From the IMG/VR virus record IMGVR_UViG_2660238153_000004, positions 1 to 31,424 of that record: a stretch of 31,424 bases of DNA, one strand, 5' to 3'. Positions 2,811 through 26,249 of this stretch are shown piece by piece. The notes under the pieces were generated by a model, which saw only the letters and a list, made by a program, of their open reading frames with translations, searched no databases and was not told the origin of the DNA. The DNA is from a virus (Duplodnaviria; Heunggongvirae; Uroviricota; Caudoviricetes). Within the stretch, counting starts at the first letter, position 1; each line of letters starts with the position of its first letter. The position numbers and the translations under genes are program-made.

Positions 2811-3971
2811 TTACCTCGCATTTAAGTAAACCACGTTCTCCTCTTGTGCCGTATTTGTGCCATTGCGACTTATAATCGCATCGATTTTGCTTGCGTGCTC
2901 GGTGAGATGCCCGGCTGAAAGGTGGGCGTATCTTTGAACCATTTCGAGAGTTTCCCATCCTCCCATCTCTTTAAGTGCAAGAAGAGAGACACCGGACTGA
3001 ACCAGCCAGCTTGCCCAGGTATGCCTCAGATCATGGAAGCGGAAGTTGCTAATGCCTGCCCGCTTTAACGCTCCCTTCCATGCCTTGTTGCTGTCGGTTC
3101 TCATCTTCCTTACCGCTGCTGTTTTTGTTCCGTCGCTTCGGTAGGCAGGTTTGGTGTGGACAAATACCCATCTCTTATGGAGCCCCTGCTGTTTTCTTAA
3201 TATCTGGCATGCGGTTTCGTTAAGAGGAACTCCGATCGCATTGCCAGCTTTTGTTTCATCAGGGTGCATCCATGCCATTTTCTTATCCAGATCGACCTGT
3301 GACCACTCAAGGTCTGTAACGTTGGAACGGCGAAGGCCTGTCGTGATTGCAAACATGACCACAGGGAAGAAGTGAGGAGCAATTTCTGCAAACAGGCGCT
3401 TCGATTCCTCCTCTGTAAGCCATCTGATGCGTCCATTCTTAACGCGTGGTGTTGATATTTTGGGTGCCCTGTCAAGCCATCCCCATTCAACAGCCATATT
3501 GAGAATGGCGCGAAGTATTGCCAGATGCCTCGTCTTCGTTCCTTTGCTTGCAAGCTTTGGTTTATACTCCGGCACCGGATTGCCAAGTCGCAAACACCTG
3601 TCCCGGCTCATCTCCCAGTTCAGGCGATGGCGGCGGTTTTCCATCCCGTCTACCGCCTCCATTATTTTTTCTGTTGTTATGTCAGAGAGAATGGCTTCTC
3701 TGAAGTGCAACATCCAGAACGATATAATGCTCTTGTCATCATCAATGGACTTCTTATCCGATTTCTCACGCAGCCACCGTATGCAGGCTTCCTTGAATAG
3801 CTTTTTCGGTGATTCCCCGAGATTTTTTACTCTCCACGCTTCTGCTTTCAGACGATCGTGAAGTTCTTGCGCTTGCCTTTTGTCCGATGTTTCAAGAGAG
3901 CGTCTAACTCTTGATCCATCTGGCGCGACGAAATCGCAGTGCCACGTGCCACCGCGTAGTTTGATTGACAT
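2811..3971 (-). CDS. int: Phage integrase, tyrosine recombinase (P22 Int-like)
   Basis: 386-aa ORF with C-terminal catalytic region ...FRFHDLRHTWASWLVQSGVSLLALKEMGGWETLEMVQRYAHL... (R..HxxR..Y signature); lies directly beside a tRNA gene. Confidence 0.9.
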   Translation of the reverse strand: MSIKLRGGTWHCDFVAPDGSRVRRSLETSDKRQAQELHDRLKAEAWRVKNLGESPKKLFKEACIRWLREKSDKKSIDDDKSIISFWMLHFREAILSDITTEKIMEAVDGMENRRHRLNWEMSRDRCLRLGNPVPEYKPKLASKGTKTRHLAILRAILNMAVEWGWLDRAPKISTPRVKNGRIRWLTEEESKRLFAEIAPHFFPVVMFAITTGLRRSNVTDLEWSQVDLDKKMAWMHPDETKAGNAIGVPLNETACQILRKQQGLHKRWVFVHTKPAYRSDGTKTAAVRKMRTDSNKAWKGALKRAGISNFRFHDLRHTWASWLVQSGVSLLALKEMGGWETLEMVQRYAHLSAGHLTEHASKIDAIISRNGTNTAQEENVVYLNAR

Positions 3972-16893: not shown

Positions 16894-17078
16894 ACGCCAC
16901 AATTCAAACGATACCAGAGCTTCTTATCCAGACACGAGGAAATCAGACCGAAGTGGCGAGGATGCTTTCCTGCGCAAGAGGAACAGTGCTCAAGTACAAC
17001 CGAGACAGCAAAGGCGAGCGTCACGTAATAGTTAACGGCGTCCTGATGGTCAAACAGGGCAAGAGGGGAAGACGATGA
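16890..17078 (+). CDS. ninH: NinH-like small DNA-binding protein
   Basis: 62 aa; ...GNQTEVARMLSCARGTVLKY... HTH resembling lambda NinH (from memory); ATGA overlap with rusA. Confidence 0.65.
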   Translation: MNATIQTIPELLIQTRGNQTEVARMLSCARGTVLKYNRDSKGERHVIVNGVLMVKQGKRGRR

Positions 17079-17593
17079 GCATAAGAGAACTAAACCTCAC
17101 CAAAGAACAGCACGATTGGCTGAATGGCTGGCTTGAACTGTGGGGTGCATGGGTTTACTCAGGTCGCCTGGAAAAGCGCATGAGCAGCGTAATAGCGAAG
17201 TTCATGGAGAGCGTAGAGCCGGGAAGAGTTATGACAAGGCCAATGTGTAATGATGATGATGGAATGTTGATTTCTCAGGTCGTCGATTCCGTCATGTACA
17301 TTGACAAGAAAGCCTTTGGCATCCTCCTCAGCTACTACGCTCATGGTTCATCTAAGCGAGCAATTGCATCCTACTATCACGCGACTGCAAAGCCACGCAA
17401 GATGTGTGGGCGTGGTGGTGAGGGATGGAGAAAACCTTCACTGGCAACCTGTAGAAATGAAATTGACGACATCCTGAAAGCGTCGTTATTTGTTTTGTAC
17501 CAACCAATGCAAAATGCTTTCAAAATGCGTAAACGTGTTGAGAAAGTTAAGCATGTTGCCGTTAAAAGCCTTGACATGCAATTAGCCATTTAG
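17075..17593 (+). CDS. Q: Late-gene antiterminator Q (phage 82-type family)
   Basis: 172 aa; WLELWGAWVYSG...RPMCNDDDGMLIS... parallels phage 82 Q (LERWGAWAANN...RPQCCDDDAMII) from memory; last nin-region gene before the late promoter region. Confidence 0.7.
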   Translation: MSIRELNLTKEQHDWLNGWLELWGAWVYSGRLEKRMSSVIAKFMESVEPGRVMTRPMCNDDDGMLISQVVDSVMYIDKKAFGILLSYYAHGSSKRAIASYYHATAKPRKMCGRGGEGWRKPSLATCRNEIDDILKASLFVLYQPMQNAFKMRKRVEKVKHVAVKSLDMQLAI

Positions 17594-17600
17594 CCATAAT
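17571..17600 (+). promoter_or_regulatory. Putative late promoter pR'
   Basis: TTGACA (17571..17576), 18-bp spacer, CATAAT (17595..17600), spanning the Q stop codon; terminator-like hairpin and T-run follow within about 50 nt. Confidence 0.4.
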
Positions 17601-17610
17601 TAGAGGGTAA

Positions 17611-17656
17611 GCTGCCGTTAGTGACTCTTAAGTTGCAACGGTGGCTTTTTTTATTT
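17611..17656 (+). terminator. Putative tR'-like terminator
   Basis: GCTGCCGTT...AACGGTGGC stem (two G-U pairs, large loop containing CTTAAG) followed by TTTTTTTATTT. Confidence 0.4.
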
Positions 17657-17731
17657 GGGTCAGTCGTATAAAGGTCATTACGGAAGGCTGTTAACCTTCT
17701 TATCGTGGTTCGAGTCCACGCTGTCCCGCCA
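17657..17731 (+). tRNA. Phage tRNA-Asn (anticodon GUU) candidate
   Basis: 75 nt; acceptor GGGTCAG/CTGTCCC (one T-T mismatch), anticodon stem GAAGG/CCTTC with loop CTGTTAA, T-arm CGTGG-TTCGAGT-CCACG, 3' GCCA; D-stem imperfect. Confidence 0.5.
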
Positions 17732-17736
17732 AACAT

Positions 17737-17812
17737 GCTGGTTTAGCTCCAATGGTAGAGCAGTCGCCTTGTAAGCGAATGGGTAGCGGTTCAAGTCCGT
17801 TAACCAGCACCA
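17737..17812 (+). tRNA. Phage tRNA-Thr (anticodon UGU) candidate
   Basis: 76 nt; perfect 7-bp acceptor GCTGGTT/AACCAGC, D-arm GCTC-CAATGGTA-GAGC, anticodon loop CTTGTAA, T-arm AGCGG-TTCAAGT-CCGTT, 3' ACCA. Confidence 0.65.
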
Positions 17813-17899
17813 TAACTGAGCCGTAGCCACTGGCTATCCTGAATTCATCAGTGATAGTTACGCTGCGGCCTTCTACACATGACCTTCGTGAAAGTGGGT

Positions 17900-17935
17900 G
17901 GCAGGAGGTCGCGCTAACAACCTCCTGCCGTTTTG
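17900..17935 (+). terminator. Terminator-like hairpin in the late leader
   Basis: GGCAGGAGG-TCGCGCTAACAA-CCTCCTGCC followed by GTTTTG, about 120 nt upstream of the holin start. Confidence 0.4.
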
Positions 17936-18054
17936 CCCGTGCATATCGGTCACGAACAAATCTGATTACTCAACACAGTAGCCTGGATTTGTTCTATCAG
18001 TAACCGACCATATTCCTAATTAAATAGAGCAAATCCCCTTATTGGGGGTAAGAC

Positions 18055-18378
18055 ATGAAGATGCCAGAAAAAAATGACCTGTTAGCCGCCATTCTCGCGG
18101 CAAAGGAACAAGGCATCGGGGCAATCCTTGCGTTTGCAATGGCGTACCTTCGCGGCAGATATAATGGCGGTGCGTTTACAAAAACAGTAATCGACGCAAC
18201 GATGTGCGCCATTATCGCCTGGTTCATTCGTGACCTTCTCGACTTCGCCGGACTAAGTAGCAATCTCGCTTATATAACGAGCGTGTTTATCGGCTACATC
18301 GGTACTGACTCGATTGGTTCGCTTATCAAACGCTTCGCTGCTAAAAAAGCCGGAGTAGAAGATGGTGGAAATCAATAA
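18055..18378 (+). CDS. S: Holin, lambda S-type (dual start, antiholin/holin)
   Basis: 107 aa [39 protein letters not shown]...; Met1-Lys-Met3 dual-start motif; upstream CCCCTTATTGGGGG hairpin over the RBS as in lambda. Confidence 0.9.
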
Positions 18379-18838
18379 TCAACGTAAGGCGTTCCTCGAT
18401 ATGCTGGCGTGGTCAGAGGGAACTGATAACGGACGTCAAAAAACCAGAAATCATGGTTATGACGTCATTGTTGGCGGAGAGCTATTCACTGATTACTCTG
18501 ATCACCCTCGCAAACTTGTCACGCTAAATCCGAAACTCAAATCAACAGCCGCCGGACGCTACCAGCTTCTTTCCCGTTGGTGGGATGCCTACCGTAAGCA
18601 GCTTGGCCTGAAAGACTTCTCTCCGAAAAGCCAGGACGCTGTGGCACTGCAACAGATTAAAGAGCGTGGCGCTTTACCGATGATTGATCGCGGTGATATT
18701 CGTCAGGCTATCGACCGTTGCAGCAATATCTGGGCTTCACTGCCTGGCGCTGGTTATGGTCAGTTCGAGCATAAGGCTGACAGCCTGATTGCAAAATTCA
18801 AAGAGGCAGGCGGAACGGTCAGAGAGATTGAGGTATGA
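18362..18838 (+). CDS. R: Endolysin, lambda R-type lytic transglycosylase
   Basis: 158 aa [39 protein letters not shown]...; overlaps the S end. Confidence 0.9.
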
Positions 18839-19272
18839 GCAAAGTAACCGCGATTATCTCCGCTCTGGTTATCTGCATCATCGTTTGCCTGTCATGGGCT
18901 GTTAATCACTACCGTGATAACGCCATCGCCTACAAAGAGCAGCGCGATAAGGCCGCATCCACAATTGCTGACATGCAGAAGCGTCAACGTGATGTAGCAG
19001 AACTCGATGCCAGATATACAAAGGAGCTTGCTGATGCTAACGCGACTATCGAAAGTCTCCGTGCTGATGTTTCTGCTGGGCGTAAGCGCCTGCAAGTCGC
19101 CGCCACCTGTGCAAAGTCAACGACCGGAGCCAGCAGCATGGGCGATGGAGAAAGCCCAAGACTTACAGCAGATGCTGAACTCAATTATTACCGTCTACGA
19201 AGCGGAATCGACAGGATAACCGCGCAGGTTAACTACCTGCAGGAGTACATCAGGACGCAATGCCTTCGATGA
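18835..19272 (+). CDS. Rz: Rz i-spanin
   Basis: 145 aa with N-terminal transmembrane segment ([18 protein letters not shown]) and coiled-coil periplasmic domain; ATGA overlap with R. Confidence 0.85.
19034..19219 (+). CDS. Rz1: Rz1 o-spanin lipoprotein (embedded in Rz, +1 frame)
   Basis: 61 aa from the ATG preceded by AAGGAG; signal peptide with lipobox-like VSAC and Pro-rich mature part ([16 protein letters not shown]); lies wholly within Rz. Confidence 0.7.
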
Positions 19273-19446
19273 TAGCGATAATTTTACTCATCATCCTTCA
19301 CATCTGGCTCTGTAGACAGGGTGATGATCACTTCTGGAGTGAATCCAGATTAAACATCTCATTGCTGATGCTTGATATTGAGCATCTGGCGCGCGGTAAG
19401 GGGCTGCGTTGAGATAAGAGCCAGTCATTACAAATACCAGGATTTA

Positions 19447-19470
19447 GCCTCGCATTTGCGGGGCTTTTTT
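19447..19470 (+). terminator. Putative intrinsic terminator downstream of the lysis cassette
   Basis: GCCTCG-CATTTG-CGGGGC hairpin (one G-U pair) followed by TTTTTT. Confidence 0.45.
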
Positions 19471-19616
19471 ACATCTGCAGTAAACCGCGCATCGCAGCGC
19501 GTAACAATCCCGAGTCTTTCAGAAAGCTGAGCCTGAGAATTGCCGTATATGGTGGCGACCATCTCGGGGGCGGCTTTTCTGTGCGAACAGGCTCATCTTT
19601 CTAAAAGGTAAACGCT

Positions 19617-20102
19617 ATGAATAACTTTGTTGAAATTACCTCAAGAATTGGTCGCATGTACCAAGATTTTCTTATAAGTGGAAAGGGGTCTGGCGACATC
19701 ATAGAGGAAATTGACAAGCTAAGTGCAGAGCTGAGAAGGAATGGGTGTGTTAATTCTATCTTTTTTGAAACTTTGCTAAAGCAAGGCTTTATGTTTGACA
19801 TGATTAATTACAACAAAGTCGCACCCAGTGCTTCGCAAAAATCATATGTGTACGTTCTGCATGCTGAAGATAGTGGGCTAACAAAAATAGGGTTTAGTCG
19901 CAGGGTTAATAAACGAATTTCAGAGATATCTCGCATGAGTGGTGGGAAGCTAAATCTAATTGCAAAGATTCCGGCCGATAGAGAGCTTGAAACCAAATTG
20001 CACCAAAAATATTACAACTATAGGTCGCACGGGGAGTGGTTTAGCCTCAATCGTTGTCATTTGAAAGAGCTAAAAGAAATGCCTGGTAACGAACTGAAAT
20101 AA
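19617..20102 (+). CDS. T5orf172/GIY-YIG-like domain protein (moron; candidate nuclease)
   Basis: 161-aa ORF in a visibly AT-rich segment; C-terminal half SYVYVLHAEDSGLTKIGFSRRVNKRISEISRMSGG...RELETKLHQKYYNYRSHGEWFSLN fits the YVY...KIG...R...E..LH...EWF pattern of the T5orf172 domain; AAGG RBS. Confidence 0.65.
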   Translation: MNNFVEITSRIGRMYQDFLISGKGSGDIIEEIDKLSAELRRNGCVNSIFFETLLKQGFMFDMINYNKVAPSASQKSYVYVLHAEDSGLTKIGFSRRVNKRISEISRMSGGKLNLIAKIPADRELETKLHQKYYNYRSHGEWFSLNRCHLKELKEMPGNELK

Positions 20103-20350
20103 TCCCCGGACTCACTAATTAACGGCAGTACAGCGAAACAACCCAAGCCAGTAAGTGGGGAAATAACACTGGCAGCCACTGAAAGATGAACCTCCTGCCT
20201 TATGGCAAAAAAAGATTCTTTGTGGTGGCGGACTGATGGAAAGACATCGGTTATTGCAGAGACCATTCAATGAGTGGTCTCGACAATGGCTTATACCCTA
20301 CACGGGATAACTTAACTGATATCCCTTTTAACGGATAAACGGAGCCAACA

Positions 20351-20593
20351 ATGGCAGAGATTACCCCCATGACTGAAGAACAGAAATTCCAGTTAGAGAT
20401 TTATAAACTGGTCATGAACCAGAACGCAGCCGCAGAGGAAGCATTTCAGTTCATTGGCACTGACGAACTGAAGCTTGAGCTATTCAAAATTCACTTCCAG
20501 TCAGGCGGCGCTAATTCAGATATCACGACCCGCACTATCGAAGCGGTGCGTAAATCGAAGGAAGCGTTAGACCTGTTCACTGCTGGAGAATAA
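20351..20593 (+). CDS. Hypothetical protein (80 aa)
   Basis: ORF with GGAG RBS; first of three tightly packed genes ahead of the small terminase. Confidence 0.55.
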   Translation: MAEITPMTEEQKFQLEIYKLVMNQNAAAEEAFQFIGTDELKLELFKIHFQSGGANSDITTRTIEAVRKSKEALDLFTAGE

Positions 20594-20595
20594 CC

Positions 20596-20883
20596 ATGGA
20601 ACAACAAGAATTACCTCGCTGGCAGTGTCACAAGCAGGTATGGGCGTTAAAGATTCGACATATCGACCACAAACCAAACCCAGACCTTTCTGGCGTGTCG
20701 GGCGCATCAAGCTATGGGGCCACCATTCACCCGGAAGATGGCACATACGCGCCATTCGATGTAAGCCCTGAGTACGTTAACAAACATCAACCGGTCGCTG
20801 GCGGGTATTACGTTGTGTATGAGGATGGCTATGCATCCTTCTCTCCTGCTGACTCGTTTGAATCCGGGTACACGAAAATCTGA
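20596..20883 (+). CDS. Hypothetical protein (95 aa)
   Basis: ORF starting 3 nt after the previous stop; Tyr/Gly-rich C-terminal half. Confidence 0.55.
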   Translation: MEQQELPRWQCHKQVWALKIRHIDHKPNPDLSGVSGASSYGATIHPEDGTYAPFDVSPEYVNKHQPVAGGYYVVYEDGYASFSPADSFESGYTKI

Positions 20884-20894
20884 CGGAGCCTCTG

Positions 20895-21383
20895 ATGACT
20901 ACAGTCGCATGGGATGGAAAGACACTGGCATCTGACACCCAGGCATCAACTGGCAGTGTCGTTTGCTCCCTTTCTGAACAGAAGATATACACCCCGCCAG
21001 AGTCAGGTTGGGAGATTTACGGAAGCAAAGTCCTTGCCTTCGGTTGCTCTGGTGACTGCGGCGCAGAGATGGAATTACAGGATCTGCTTAAGCACAACCT
21101 CACGTATGCCTCCGAGTTCCTGCCGACATTCTCCTTCACGGCTCTGGCTATCATCGGTGCTGGGCGAGCATACATCATCACCAAAGAGAAAGGCGAAACG
21201 CGGGCGAGCATATCGCTACAGGTTGAGCCATACGCAATAGGCAGTGGCGACCTGATCGCGCGCACTGCCATGCACTGTGGCAAAAATGCGAGAGAAGCGG
21301 TACAAGTCGCAATTGATCTTGACTGCTATTCCGGCGGCAGCGTTGATTCGTTCCCCGCTGGGAAGCAAACAGAAGGGAAATAA
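20895..21383 (+). CDS. HslV-like N-terminal-threonine hydrolase (proteasome beta-type fold), phage-encoded
   Basis: 162 aa beginning MTTVAWDGKTLASDTQASTGSVV; parallels to HslV (MTTIVSV...DGQATLGNTV; ...AIGSGGPYA...ALDIAGDI versus ...AIGSGDLIA...AIDLDCYS) from memory; GGAG RBS. Confidence 0.6.
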   Translation: MTTVAWDGKTLASDTQASTGSVVCSLSEQKIYTPPESGWEIYGSKVLAFGCSGDCGAEMELQDLLKHNLTYASEFLPTFSFTALAIIGAGRAYIITKEKGETRASISLQVEPYAIGSGDLIARTAMHCGKNAREAVQVAIDLDCYSGGSVDSFPAGKQTEGK

Positions 21384-21388
21384 TCAAT

Positions 21389-21814
21389 ATGGCGACTGAG
21401 AAAAAGAAAGGTGGTCGCCCCTCTGATTATATGCCGGAGGTGGCTAATGACATTTGCGCATTGCTTTCCTCCGGTGAGAGTCTGCGCAAAGTTTGCGAAC
21501 GCCCAGGAATGCCGAGCAAAACATCAGTTTTTCGCTGGCTGGCTGAACATCAGGAGTTTCGTGACCAGTACGCGAAGGCAACAGAGACTCGGGCCGACTC
21601 TATTTTCGAAGAGATATTCGAAATTGCTGACGGCGTAATCCCTGATGCCGCCGAGGTGGCAAAGGCAAGACTTCGCGTTGATACCCGCAAATGGGCGCTG
21701 GCCAGAATGAATCCCCGTAAGTATGGCGACAAGGTAACTAATGAGCTTGTCGGCAAAGACGGCGGCGCAATCCAGATTGAAACATCACCGATGAGCACTC
21801 TATTCGGAAAATGA
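21389..21814 (+). CDS. Terminase small subunit (Sf6 gp1-like)
   Basis: 141 aa MATEKKKGGRPSDYMPEVANDICALLSSGESLRKVCERPGMPSK... with N-terminal HTH; immediately upstream of the large terminase with 4-nt overlap. Confidence 0.8.
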   Translation: MATEKKKGGRPSDYMPEVANDICALLSSGESLRKVCERPGMPSKTSVFRWLAEHQEFRDQYAKATETRADSIFEEIFEIADGVIPDAAEVAKARLRVDTRKWALARMNPRKYGDKVTNELVGKDGGAIQIETSPMSTLFGK

Positions 21815-23223
21815 CCTCGATTAATCCTATCTTTGAACCGTTCATTGAGGCGCATCGCTACAAAGTCGCCAAAGGCGGTCGAGGTAGCGGTAAATCATGG
21901 GCAATTGCGAGGCTGCTTGTTGAAGCGGCGCGCCGACAGCCTGTGCGTATTCTCTGCGCTCGTGAACTGCAAAACAGTATCAGCGATTCGGTAATCCGGT
22001 TGCTTGAAGACACCATCGAGCGGGAAGGGTATTCGGCTGAGTTTGAAATTCAGCGTTCAATGATTCGTCATCTCGGAACTAATGCTGAATTCATGTTCTA
22101 CGGCATCAAAAACAACCCGACGAAGATTAAATCGCTCGAAGGCATTGATATCTGCTGGGTGGAAGAAGCGGAAGCGGTAACGAAGGAATCATGGGATATC
22201 CTGATTCCAACCATCCGTAAGCCGTTCTCTGAAATATGGGTGAGCTTTAACCCGAAGAACATCCTCGACGATACCTATCAGCGATTCGTCGTAAATCCTC
22301 CTGATGATATTTGTCTGCTGACGGTGAACTACACCGACAACCCGCACTTTCCTGAAGTTCTCCGTCTGGAGATGGAAGAGTGTAAACGCAGAAATCCGAC
22401 ACTGTATCGTCACATCTGGCTTGGTGAGCCAGTAAGCGCAAGTGATATGGCAATCATCAAACGTGAATGGCTTGAAGCCGCAACCGATGCGCACAAGAAA
22501 CTCGGATGGAAAGCGAAAGGCGCTGTTGTTTCTGCACATGACCCATCAGATACAGGGCCGGATGCCAAAGGTTATGCATCGCGCCACGGTTCGGTAGTTA
22601 AGCGCATTGCCGAAGGTCTGCTGATGGACATCAACGAGGGTGCTGACTGGGCAACTTCGCTGGCGATTGAAGACGGTGCTGACCATTACCTGTGGGATGG
22701 TGATGGTGTTGGTGCCGGGCTACGCAGACAGACAACGGAAGCGTTCTCCGGCAAGAAAATCACCGCCACGATGTTCAAGGGCAGCGAATCGCCATTCGAT
22801 GAAGATGCTCCGTATCAGGCCGGAGCATGGGCTGATGAAGTCGTACAGGGTGACAACGTTCGCACTATTGGCGATGTGTTCCGCAATAAGCGAGCACAAT
22901 TCTATTACGCGCTGGCTGACAGGCTGTATCTGACATATCGGGCGGTTGTTCACGGTGAGTATGCAGACCCAGACGACATGCTGAGTTTCGACAAAGAAGC
23001 GATAGGCGAGAAGATGCTGGAGAAGCTGTTTGCAGAACTGACGCAGATTCAGCGCAAATTCAATAACAACGGGAAGCTGGAGCTAATGACTAAGGTCGAA
23101 ATGAAGCAGAAGCTCGGTATTCCATCTCCTAACCTGGCTGATGCGCTGATGATGTGTATGCATTGCCCGGCATTGGTCCGCGAAGAAACAGAAATATACG
23201 TTCCCTCATCCTCCGGTTGGTAA
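21811..23223 (+). CDS. Terminase large subunit
   Basis: 470 aa; Walker A KGGRGSGKSW near the N-terminus, ATPase and C-terminal nuclease domains; precedes the portal gene. Confidence 0.9.
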   Translation: MTSINPIFEPFIEAHRYKVAKGGRGSGKSWAIARLLVEAARRQPVRILCARELQNSISDSVIRLLEDTIEREGYSAEFEIQRSMIRHLGTNAEFMFYGIKNNPTKIKSLEGIDICWVEEAEAVTKESWDILIPTIRKPFSEIWVSFNPKNILDDTYQRFVVNPPDDICLLTVNYTDNPHFPEVLRLEMEECKRRNPTLYRHIWLGEPVSASDMAIIKREWLEAATDAHKKLGWKAKGAVVSAHDPSDTGPDAKGYASRHGSVVKRIAEGLLMDINEGADWATSLAIEDGADHYLWDGDGVGAGLRRQTTEAFSGKKITATMFKGSESPFDEDAPYQAGAWADEVVQGDNVRTIGDVFRNKRAQFYYALADRLYLTYRAVVHGEYADPDDMLSFDKEAIGEKMLEKLFAELTQIQRKFNNNGKLELMTKVEMKQKLGIPSPNLADALMMCMHCPALVREETEIYVPSSSGW

Positions 23224-23260: not shown

Positions 23261-25351
23261 ATGCTCAGGTTTGACCGCGCCTATTCTCCACAGAAGGAAG
23301 TGCGCGAAAAGTGCATTGAAGCTACGAGGTTTGCTCGTGTCCCCGGAGGTCAATGGGAAGGAGCAACGGCGGCTGGAACTAAGCTTGATGAGCAGTTCGA
23401 GAAGTATCCTAAGTTTGAAATCAATAAGGTAGCAACTGAACTTAACCGCATCATTGCAGAATACCGCAATAACAGAATCACTGTTAAGTTTCGTCCTGGT
23501 GACAGAGAGGCAAGCGAAGAGTTAGCCAATAAATTAAATGGTCTGTTCCGTGCTGACTACGAAGAAACTGATGGCGGTGAGGCTTGCGATAATGCATTTG
23601 ACGACGCTGCTACTGGTGGTTTCGGTTGCTTCCGTTTGACGTCGATGCTGGTCAATGAATACGACCCCATGGACGATCGTCAGCGTATTGCTATTGAACC
23701 AATATACGACCCGTCGCGCTCTGTGTGGTTTGACCCTGACGCTAAGAAGTACGACAAATCTGACGCGTTGTGGGCGTTCTGTATGTATTCGTTGTCACCT
23801 GAAAAATATGAGGCTGAATACGGGAAGAAACCTCCTACTTCTCTGGATGTAACGTCTATGACCAGTTGGGAATATAACTGGTTTGGTGCAGATGTTATTT
23901 ACATAGCGAAGTATTACGAAGTTCGTAAAGAGTCTGTTGACGTCATCAGTTATCGACATCCAATCACTGGAGAGATTGCAACATACGACAGTGATCAGGT
24001 TGAAGATATTGAAGATGAACTGGCAATAGCTGGATTTCATGAAGTGGCAAGGCGCTCAGTGAAGCGCCGTCGTGTGTATGTATCCGTAGTGGATGGTGAT
24101 GGTTTCCTTGAGAAACCTCGACGTATTCCTGGTGAGCATATCCCCCTCATCCCGGTTTATGGAAAACGCTGGTTCATTGATGACATTGAGCGTGTCGAAG
24201 GGCACATTGCAAAAGCAATGGATCCACAGCGTTTGTATAACCTTCAGGTATCAATGCTGGCTGATACTGCAGCGCAAGACCCCGGTCAGATCCCTATAGT
24301 TGGCATGGAGCAAATTCGTGGACTTGAGAAGCACTGGGAGGCTCGCAACAAGAAACGACCAGCGTTCTTGCCGTTGCGCGAAGTGAGAGATAAATCTGGC
24401 AACATTATCGCTGGAGCTACCCCGGCAGGATATACACAGCCTGCGGTTATGAATCAGGCATTGGCTGCATTACTACAGCAAACCAGTGCAGATATTCAGG
24501 AGGTTACAGGCGGCAGTCAGGCCATGCAGCAGATGCCAAGTAATATTGCTCAGGAAACGGTTAACAACTTGATGAACAGAGCAGATATGGCTTCGTTTAT
24601 CTATCTGGACAATATGGCGAAAAGTCTTAAACGCGCTGGTGAAGTATGGCTGTCAATGGCGCGTGAAGTGTACGGTTCAGAACGTGAAGTGCGCATCGTT
24701 AACGAAGATGGAAGTGATGATATCGCTGTCCTGAGCGCACAGGTTGTTGACAGGCAAACAGGGGCTGTTGTTGCGTTAAATGACCTTTCTGTCGGTCGAT
24801 ACGATGTGACGGTTGATGTTGGACCAAGCTACACAGCACGACGTGATGCAACGGTTTCTGTACTGACAAATGTCCTTAGCTCTATGCTTCCAACAGACCC
24901 AATGCGCCCGGCAATTCAGGGTATTATTCTGGACAATATCGATGGCGAAGGCCTTGATGACTTCAAAGAGTACAACCGAAACCAACTGCTGATATCTGGT
25001 ATTGCAAAACCACGCAATGAGAAAGAGCAGCAGATTGTTCAACAGGCGCAAATGGCAGCACAAAGCCAGCCAAATCCTGAAATGGTTCTCGCTCAGGCGC
25101 AAATGGTAGCAGCGCAGGCAGAAGCGCAAAAAGCAACTAACGAAACTGCTCAAACTCAAATCAAAGCATTTACTGCCCAGCAGGATGCGATGGAGAGTCA
25201 GGCAAACACTGTCTATAAACTGGCTCAAGCCAGAAACATCGATGACAAAGCAGTGATGGAGGCAATACGCCTTCTGAAAGATGTCGCCGAGTCACAACAA
25301 CAGCAATTCCAGTCACCACCACAGTCACCGGCAGACTTAATGCCGAGTTAA
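23261..25351 (+). CDS. Portal protein (P22 gp1-like); 5' end may be frameshifted
   Basis: 696-aa ORF; conserved portal core ...VKRRRVYVSVVDG...GEHIPLIPVYG... with Gln-rich C-terminal barrel region; an ATG at 23226 directly after the terminase stop opens a different frame (see findings). Confidence 0.8.
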   Translation: MLRFDRAYSPQKEVREKCIEATRFARVPGGQWEGATAAGTKLDEQFEKYPKFEINKVATELNRIIAEYRNNRITVKFRPGDREASEELANKLNGLFRADYEETDGGEACDNAFDDAATGGFGCFRLTSMLVNEYDPMDDRQRIAIEPIYDPSRSVWFDPDAKKYDKSDALWAFCMYSLSPEKYEAEYGKKPPTSLDVTSMTSWEYNWFGADVIYIAKYYEVRKESVDVISYRHPITGEIATYDSDQVEDIEDELAIAGFHEVARRSVKRRRVYVSVVDGDGFLEKPRRIPGEHIPLIPVYGKRWFIDDIERVEGHIAKAMDPQRLYNLQVSMLADTAAQDPGQIPIVGMEQIRGLEKHWEARNKKRPAFLPLREVRDKSGNIIAGATPAGYTQPAVMNQALAALLQQTSADIQEVTGGSQAMQQMPSNIAQETVNNLMNRADMASFIYLDNMAKSLKRAGEVWLSMAREVYGSEREVRIVNEDGSDDIAVLSAQVVDRQTGAVVALNDLSVGRYDVTVDVGPSYTARRDATVSVLTNVLSSMLPTDPMRPAIQGIILDNIDGEGLDDFKEYNRNQLLISGIAKPRNEKEQQIVQQAQMAAQSQPNPEMVLAQAQMVAAQAEAQKATNETAQTQIKAFTAQQDAMESQANTVYKLAQARNIDDKAVMEAIRLLKDVAESQQQQFQSPPQSPADLMPS

Positions 25352-25364
25352 CCAGGAGTAATCA

Positions 25365-26249
25365 ATGGAAAACGAACTGATCATCGACGGTCAGGTTATT
25401 GACCTGTCTGAAACACAGGAAAATGCAGAAGAAACCATCATCCAAACAGAGTCACAGCCTGAGAATGAAAGCCAGGATGACAACGGTAAAGAGGTGGCAA
25501 CTGAGCCTGAAAAAACCGAAGAGACACCAGAAGATTACGCCTTGCGTATTGGTGATGAAGAAATTCAGCTTAACGCTGACGATGATGATCACATTGACGG
25601 GCAACCTGCACCACAATGGGTGAAAGATCTTCGCAAAGGCTTCAAAGAAACACAGAAAGAAAACCGTGAGTTGCGCCGCCAGCTTGAGGAAGCATTAGCC
25701 AAGCCTGCGGAACATCAGCAACCACAACCAGACGCTATTCCACCAAAACCGACTCTTGAGTCGTGTGATTATGACGAACAGGCGTTTGAACAGGCATTGA
25801 CTGATTGGCATGAGAAAAAAGGCCGTGTCGAACAGCAGCAGCAACAAAAACTACGTCAGCAACAGGAATACCAACAGCGTTTCCAGCAAAGGGTAGAAGC
25901 GCATAAACAACGGGCAGCCAAACTTCCTGTGAAAGATTATCAGGAAATGGAGGCCATTGTTCTTAGTGAGCTACCACCAATTCAGCAGGAAATCATCATT
26001 CACTGTGCAGACGAAGGCTCTGAACTACTCGCCTATGGCTTAGGTAAGAGCCAGCAATTACGCCAGCGTGTAGCCGCTGAGACAGATCCAATTCGCGCAG
26101 CATTCCTCTTGGGGCAGATTAGCAAACAGGTAAGCCTTGCTCCAAAACCAAAGAAAGCCATCAAGCCAGAGCCGGAAGTACGTGGTGGCGGTGCTGATGC
26201 GAAACAAGACGAATTCAACAAATTATGCCCCGGCGCAAAAATCGAATAA
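25365..26249 (+). CDS. Scaffolding protein (P22 gp8-like)
   Basis: 294 aa; highly acidic N-terminus, Gln/Glu-rich coiled-coil middle, basic C-terminal segment; sits between portal and coat. Confidence 0.75.
   Translation: MENELIIDGQVIDLSETQENAEETIIQTESQPENESQDDNGKEVATEPEKTEETPEDYALRIGDEEIQLNADDDDHIDGQPAPQWVKDLRKGFKETQKENRELRRQLEEALAKPAEHQQPQPDAIPPKPTLESCDYDEQAFEQALTDWHEKKGRVEQQQQQKLRQQQEYQQRFQQRVEAHKQRAAKLPVKDYQEMEAIVLSELPPIQQEIIIHCADEGSELLAYGLGKSQQLRQRVAAETDPIRAAFLLGQISKQVSLAPKPKKAIKPEPEVRGGGADAKQDEFNKLCPGAKIE

Follow-up and report, generated by a model that had tools for sequence, protein, structure and literature searches.

A PPH-family proteasome homologue encoded ahead of the terminase genes of a P22-like prophage, and its possible link to HslU-type unfoldases

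Why would a tailed phage encode a miniature proteasome subunit immediately ahead of its terminase genes? The question is raised by the virus record IMGVR_UViG_2660238153_000004, of which positions 1 to 31,424 were analysed (31,424 nucleotides, the whole stretch being called the window below). An open reading frame (ORF) for a 162-aa protein lies there directly before the small terminase gene, and an original prediction, made from the letters alone, had taken its product for an HslV-like threonine hydrolase. Profile and model comparisons place the protein in the PPH family of proteasome homologues. We tentatively think that it acts as an N-terminal-Thr protease supplied with substrates by an HslU-type unfoldase. 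PPH is very widespread, and its function can be approached conveniently by genetics in a P22-like prophage whose host is an enteric bacterium.

The genes in question are the following.

20351-20593, plus strand: DUF2560/hkbM-type protein, 80 aa (Pfam PF10834, E 1e-43)
20596-20883, plus strand: small phage protein, 95 aa (phrog_11049)
20885-20888, plus strand: GGAG ribosome-binding site (Shine-Dalgarno) read from the sequence, 6 nt 5' of the PPH ATG
20895-21383, plus strand: PPH-family proteasome homologue, 162 aa, a predicted N-terminal-Thr peptidase
21389-21814, plus strand: Sf6-type small terminase subunit (Pfam PF20901, E 7e-44; phrog_1482), the start of the packaging and head genes

The three ORFs lie on the plus strand exactly where they had been placed, with the small terminase next. 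The 3- and 12-nt gaps given for them were coordinate differences; the intervening bases number 2 and 11, and 5 bases separate the PPH gene from the terminase start. Each of the three has a GGAG-type ribosome-binding site. The 162-aa product begins with MTT and contains YAIGSG at residues 113-118, so the start and the AIGSG segment that had been read are both present.

A compact proteasome homologue of the PPH family

Searches with the single protein sequence gave no match in Pfam at E up to 1, just a sub-threshold hit in NCBIfam to the archaeal proteasome-beta model arc_protsome_B (15 bits against a cut-off of 224) and only rows of E about 1 in the PDB. PADLOC, run on all three ORF proteins, had no match at E up to 0.1. 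PHROGs assigned residues 1-159 to phrog_1040, 'peptidase HslV family' (E 6.6e-35), and a first homologue search found 57 relatives. When 24 homologues were aligned, M1, T2, D14, K30, G53, G116, G118, D143 and G147 were invariant, and S117 and S146 nearly so. Searched against the PDB as a profile, this alignment returned proteasome beta and HslV chains in all 60 of the best 60 rows, with a best E of 1.7e-4 and E. coli HslV at E 0.018. An AlphaFold model of the protein (predicted local distance difference test score, pLDDT, 93.8; predicted template modelling score, pTM, 0.88) had only 20S beta subunits or BPH among its best 50 Foldseek matches, at E about 1e-7. Structure prediction and fold search thus bear out the N-terminal nucleophile (Ntn) hydrolase fold that had been proposed, and the 162-aa protein is, by profile and model, an Ntn-hydrolase of the proteasome/HslV superfamily.

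Conservation of the active site extends far beyond the close relatives. Across 148 representatives sharing at most 50% pairwise identity, the second residue is Thr in 95% and Ser in 4%, and D14 (98%), K30 (99%), G53 (99%), S117 (90%) and D143 (90%) are kept. The Thr foreseen as N-terminal nucleophile is therefore conserved in homologues together with its catalytic partners. An MT start is found in 140 of the best 150 relatives and an MS start in 6, with a median length of 155 aa. In an exhaustive profile search of clusters made at a 50% identity level, 9,880 passed E <=1e-3 and 4,968 passed E <=1e-10. By hhalign to E. coli HslV (the sequence used being 97% identical to annotated hslV genes), T2, D14, K30 and the GSG motif correspond to Thr1, Asp17, Lys33 and GSG of HslV, with gaps of about 16 columns over the region of HslV helix H2. 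The equivalents of the full catalytic set can be listed as follows.

PPH catalytic-set equivalents: T2, D14, K30, G50/G53, S117, D143, S146

The model agrees with the gaps. It has helices at 57-66, 119-127 and 132-142 only, with a single helix before the central strands, which means that H2 is missing while H3 and H4 are retained. At the sequence level, the ORF is a real gene under purifying selection (ratio of nonsynonymous to synonymous substitution rates, dN/dS, of 0.07 against an 86% identical copy in an E. coli prophage), and its product is probably an active protease.

PPH was defined by Fuchs, Alva and Lupas in 2021 among 22 new proteasome homologues, as a group I family of about 140 residues that radiates from BPH together with HslV, lacks a propeptide and is found in Caudovirales and in bacterial genes flanked by prophages (PMC8665760). 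Loss of H2 is unique to PPH and RPC among the proteasome homologues (PMC8665760). The window protein is, like the family, a compact subunit with a Met-Thr start and no propeptide, carried by a tailed phage or prophage of Proteobacteria without an adjacent AAA+ gene. It conserves the Thr1/Asp17/Lys33 triad and the glycine of the Gly47 region, and it lacks both helix H2 and the C-terminal S12/H5 elements. The difference lies in length, 162 aa against roughly 140 aa, and comes from small insertions (about 38-41 and about 98-100) and a disordered tail of about 8 residues. By sequence and model the protein is thus assigned to PPH, equivalent to PHROG 1040. We based this assignment on the phrog_1040 match and on the published description of the family represented by WP_042125023.1 (fold, Thr/Asp/Lys with the oxyanion-hole Gly, MT start, H2 loss and phage carriage, all found here).

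The original prediction therefore stands as to superfamily and falls as to orthology. The window protein shares with HslV (ClpQ) the Met-Thr-Thr start, the same catalytic residues and the GSG motif. However, it has no match to the Pfam Proteasome or NCBIfam hslV models, it has H2 deleted where canonical HslV has both H1 and H2, and its gene lies outside any hslVU operon, as phage cargo and not as a housekeeping gene. Sequence and model both indicate that it is not an HslV orthologue. Canonical HslV forms a dodecamer from two hexameric rings and is activated by HslU. BPH (PDB 5ovs, 5ovt) has H1 and H2, a long acidic pore loop and heptameric double rings (PMC8665760), whereas in the window protein H2 is replaced by a short loop.

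It had also been said that the locus was not recognised as a described module. The PPH family was already described and annotated, with PHROG 1040 named 'peptidase HslV family', and phage Dewey (PQ850600) carries a 99.4% identical copy, XPK40848.1, at the same position that is annotated 'peptidase HslV family protein'. The window protein is a routine further member.

An optional gene in a variable slot

With tblastn, PPH relatives were found in 267 phage records, including SPN3US-like and Erwinia jumbo phages, Jerseyvirus, Kagunavirus and Jedunavirus, and further in Vibrio, Pseudomonas and Caulobacter phages. Carriers range from 40-kb temperate podoviruses to 240-kb jumbo phages. Among complete E. 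coli genomes, 10 of 5,426 have the gene. HK620, CUS-3 and Kapi1 lack it, and in Sf6 the genome start shows terminase genes only; judged against HK620 and CUS-3, PPH is dispensable in P22-like phages.

Where PPH occurs, its surroundings recur in part. Of 80 viral loci from IMG/VR, 41 have a packaging gene no more than 4.1 kb downstream of a PPH copy with at least 42% identity to that of the window, and in 25 of those 41 a lysis gene lies within 2.5 kb upstream. The same slot holds PPH in E. coli, Citrobacter and metagenomic P22-like prophages. Other placements are also seen: after the large terminase in SeSz-2-like phages, ahead of the holin in Jerseyvirus and Kagunavirus, and between the head-tail adaptor and a head-closure gene in Erwinia phage Gungnir39. 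All-against-all clustering of neighbours at 45 genome loci gave no partner family beyond terminase, portal and lysis genes. Gene order thus marks PPH as optional cargo in a variable slot between the lysis cassette with DUF2560 and the small terminase.

Two bacterial lineages with PPH in a bacterial context, Pseudoalteromonas and Mesorhizobium, are the only ones in the 2021 paper (PMC8665760). A chromosomal, non-phage context was also seen here in Acetobacteraceae (Roseomonas and Falsiroseomonas; loci L015, L016, L027 and L028). The homologue of Falsiroseomonas stagni (L028:6001-6450) lies 78 bp after the aspartate carbamoyltransferase gene (pyrB) and before a dihydroorotase-like amidohydrolase gene.

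A place just upstream of the packaging and head genes, together with the Gungnir39 arrangement, could suggest a prohead or virion maturation protease, a role that had been put forward for the window protein. The head genes of the window bear on this idea.

Downstream of the small terminase: large terminase
23261-25351: portal
25365-26249: P22-type scaffold, directly after the portal
After the scaffold: P22 coat protein

Heads of the P22 type are assembled with a recycled scaffold and matured without proteolysis, and need no protease. The window encodes the P22 coat, and its P22-type scaffold gene comes after the portal gene without a protease gene in between. Moreover, a gene missing from HK620, Kapi1 and CUS-3 and from nearly all E. 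coli genomes is a poor candidate for this function, the fold is unlike that of known prohead proteases, and the Jerseyvirus and Kagunavirus copies precede a holin and not head genes. We consider head maturation scarcely credible.

The two upstream genes

The original prediction described two unrecognised small genes before PPH and raised the idea of a three-gene module. Both genes can be assigned to families. The first is Pfam DUF2560, the hkbM gene of HK620, and the second belongs to phrog_11049, whose members, more than 2,000 small proteins, carry the motif GGYYVVY-DGY-SFSPA-FE-GY.

Tight packing, with spacers of 2 and 11 nt, would fit a single functional module of DUF2560, the 95-aa gene and PPH. 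So would the finding that DUF2560 lies directly 5' of PPH in 24 of the 80 IMG/VR loci, all of them P22-like, with PPH 42-92% identical to that of the window; in some of these pairs each of the two proteins keeps only about 40-50% identity. Co-occurrence argues against it. Among the matches listed, DUF2560 occurs without PPH in HK620, CUS-3, Kapi1 and many other phage records, whereas jumbo phages, Jerseyvirus, Kagunavirus, Jedunavirus and Gungnir39 have PPH without DUF2560. Of 58 PPH loci compared, 2 carry DUF2560 and 1 carries the 95-aa gene. The 95-aa gene adjoins PPH only in Dewey and, among the 80 IMG/VR loci, in two that are 100% identical to the window, and it is found without PPH in Ralstonia, Pseudomonas, Klebsiella and other phages. 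Furthermore, PPH comes after DUF2560 and the 95-aa gene is missing in E. coli CP062855, in a Citrobacter prophage and in two metagenomic phages, some of which carry other cargo ahead of the terminase. A module of the three genes is thus very unlikely. The sequence comparisons point to DUF2560 as a resident gene of the pre-terminase slot of P22-like phages, and to the 95-aa gene as independent cargo and not a partner of PPH.

The best fold match of the 95-aa protein, a weak one, is the Dec decoration protein of phage L, and a sequence-level link between the two was looked for and not found. Two genes of similar length, IME346 gp22 (94 aa) and a 95-aa gene upstream of PPH in locus L058, proved unrelated to the 95-aa protein of the window.

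HslU and PPH in jumbo phages

As had been noted for the adjacent genes, no HslU-like or other AAA+ gene lies near PPH, neither in the window nor within 10 kb in 80 related viral contigs. The phage collection as a whole does hold HslU: 37 phage records, all of them jumbo phages of Erwinia, Salmonella and Cronobacter, encode a true HslU homologue, and phage HslU was found in jumbo-phage genomes only. Two of these phages have the following genes.

Huxley (Erwinia phage, KX397368) gp130, L054:20119-21864: HslU, 581 aa (PDB HslU E 7.5e-49; Pfam AAA and AAA_2)
Huxley gp125, L054:17155-17682: divergent PPH-like protein with an MTT start (phrog_1040, E 2.7e-10), encoded on the hslU strand 2.4 kb 5' of that gene
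Huxley gp1, L055:1-474: PPH
Phobos gp123, L066:5550-6053: PPH-like protein of the divergent type, encoded on the hslU strand 2.3 kb 5' of that gene
Phobos gp130, L066:8381-10429: hslU

Counting unique phages with a full-length HslU (n=22), at least 17 of the 22 are also among the PPH matches listed. No canonical HslV was found in the HslU-encoding jumbo phages, and the HslV matches in the phage collection look host-derived, coming from bacterial contigs and short unannotated records. Sets that combine PPH and HslU were seen in Machinavirus and Derbicusvirus of Erwinia and in some Salmonella Seoulvirus-like phages. The gp1-type PPH of Huxley falls in the same PHROG as the window protein, with which it shares 32% identity. 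These phages encode a true HslU, to which Huxley adds a divergent second PPH-like gene near by; the window prophage has neither. The pattern is the one expected if PPH-type subunits partner HslU-type unfoldases, and weakly favours that idea. This co-occurrence is not reported in the published survey, and it offers a testable hypothesis for the PPH family.

Several neighbours and similarly labelled genes were set aside. Huxley gp129 and gp132, which flank hslU, are not proteasome-like, and gp1 of Kwan and gp1 of Phobos are not PPH. Kwan gp144 (L065:6806-7237), labelled 'head maturation protease', has no match to the PPH profile, and the label is questionable. Gp116 of Erwinia phage RAY ('HslVU protease family', nucleus-localised) appears ATPase-like and not PPH, and was not used.

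Some observations on individual records may be added. In pSal-SNUABM-04 (MT710307), the feature at 106144-107871 bears the label 'putative DnaA protein' but appears to encode HslU; the paper on that phage states that no HslU is present. In Salmonella phage JN03 (MT799840.1, 105688-105891) only the first 68 HslU residues are matched, in an unannotated stretch; SPLA3, 1252 and MET_P1_082_240, which are close to JN03, have the full hslU gene. This suggests that part of the SPN3US group is losing, or has lost, hslU and keeps the gp1 PPH.

How the protein might work

We lean, tentatively and with slightly less than even confidence, towards the proposal that PPH is an N-terminal-Thr protease that degrades proteins late in the infected cell and receives its substrates through an HslU-type unfoldase. 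The HslU-dependent step of the proteolysis, taken alone, is more doubtful. E. coli HslV matures by removal of its Met by methionine aminopeptidase, and Thr is a permissive second residue. For both reasons, Met1 of the window protein, a compact proteasome-beta/HslV-like subunit without a propeptide, would be taken off by the host methionine aminopeptidase to expose the Thr as nucleophile. Asp14 and Lys30 would then complete the triad, the G50/G53 segment would stand for the oxyanion-hole Gly47 region, and Ser117, Asp143 and Ser146 would be the counterparts of Ser129, Asp166 and Ser169. By analogy with other proteasome-family subunits, activity would probably appear only after assembly of a homo-oligomeric ring. 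Such a ring could degrade proteins late in the cycle, with substrates delivered by an HslU-type AAA+ unfoldase; here this would be the host HslU (ClpY), because the phage encodes none.

A more far-reaching form of this proposal, which is on balance unlikely, is that PPH rings, assembled late in infection, serve as a phage-supplied replacement core that docks on the HslU of the host or, in jumbo phages, on that of the phage. The result would be a hybrid ATP-dependent protease of altered specificity that removes host or defence proteins, and the HslU and PPH of jumbo phages would represent the ancestral two-component form. If the link to HslU is true, this would be the first case of a virus that supplies the proteolytic core for an AAA+ unfoldase of its host, and one 'orphan' proteasome homologue would have a concrete partner. 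If it is not, PPH joins BPH as an ATPase-independent compartmental protease.

A number of points weigh against the proposal of an HslU-fed protease. The literature search found no experimental work on any PPH, with mentions at the annotation level only. Fuchs et al. identified no co-occurring AAA+ partner for the new homologues (PMC8665760), and the 80 viral contigs gave none either. The missing H2 is a further difficulty. Ring-ring contacts are made by H3 and H4 (PMC8665760). We infer that the face with H1 and H2 lies on the opposite side, so that loss of H2 would remodel the face capped by HslU or an alpha ring, and canonical HslU docking may not be possible. In the canonical pair, Lys28 of HslV contacts the C-terminus of HslU. 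This residue aligns by hhalign with Ser25 of the window protein, which is a lead and not a test, and the HslU C-terminus of the jumbo phages is not E. coli-like. The co-occurrence itself is uneven: the two regions inspected in HslU-bearing Kwan gave no PPH, jumbo phages have the divergent gp125 type as the paralogue beside hslU, their gp1 type, which more closely resembles the window protein, lies far from hslU, and most SPN3US-like phages and all small phages have PPH without a phage HslU.

A PPH ring could also work without any ATPase, like BPH or an uncapped 20S core, on unfolded or disordered proteins and peptides that diffuse in. We regard this alternative as possible but doubtful. It is favoured by the lack of AAA+ genes near PPH, by the altered docking face, by the lack of an HslU of their own in most PPH-bearing phages, and by Fuchs et al., who proposed an ATPase-free mode for the new homologues (PMC8665760). 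However, phage HslU was found only in jumbo phages, most of which have PPH-type subunits and none a canonical HslV, and an HslU lacking any protease partner would be odd.

The same co-occurrence would be compatible with an action on host HslVU, in which PPH titrates HslU, or co-assembles with HslV and poisons it, and so stabilises HslVU substrates. The fold is shared with HslV, and the hosts carry HslVU. Nevertheless, the full catalytic set is conserved over thousands of clusters, which a pure decoy would not need, and we think this action very improbable.

Loss of H2 could also be incompatible with classical stacked rings, which would fit not a bulk protease but an enzyme that works, singly or in small oligomers, on a single target of host or phage: a sequence-specific processing enzyme, a transpeptidase/ligase of the connectase kind, or an amidohydrolase on a non-protein substrate. 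Connectase is a transpeptidase/ligase within the same superfamily. In the window protein, though, the helices of the ring-ring contact, H3 and H4, are retained, and no insertion of the connectase type covers the active site, which makes such an enzyme improbable. We therefore keep to an HslU-fed protease as our tentative proposal.

Layout of the prophage

By gene content and by a tRNA gene next to the integrase, the window is a P22-like prophage at thrW, the classical P22 site. The remaining features are these.

Left of tRNA-Thr(CGT): proB and proA
2721-2796: tRNA-Thr(CGT), adjoining proBA and directly abutting the integrase gene
2811-3971, minus strand: integrase
17075-17593: Q antiterminator
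17657-17731 and 17737-17812: tRNA-Asn-GTT and tRNA-Thr-TGT, inside the prophage just downstream of the Q antiterminator
Downstream of the two tRNAs: holin, endolysin and Rz
19446-19465: strong terminator-like hairpin, its 8-bp stem including 6 GC pairs and leading into a T run, after Rz and before the cargo genes
19617-20102: T5orf172/MUG113-domain protein, 161 aa (phrog_4284), between Rz and DUF2560

Since it lies next to proBA and directly abuts the integrase, tRNA-Thr(CGT) at 2721-2796 is the likely attachment site. The late-region location of PPH that had been predicted, just ahead of the terminase, is confirmed by this gene order. A scan of 17000-22000 for promoter-like sites gave none from the site after Q (17571-17600) to the terminase. 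As it has no promoter-like site of its own, PPH is presumably transcribed as part of the Q-dependent late transcript. Q-modified polymerase would have to read through the hairpin at 19446-19465 for the cargo and head genes to be expressed.

Two further observations concern other genes. The Sf6-type small terminase of an E. coli prophage (L050:5495-5920) is named 'ubiquitin carboxyl-hydrolase' in RefSeq, which is questionable. The T5orf172-domain gene has no copy in the 59 loci compared and looks like a further cargo gene in the slot of PPH; its product has a weak PADLOC match to the candidate system PDC-S57 (E 4e-4).

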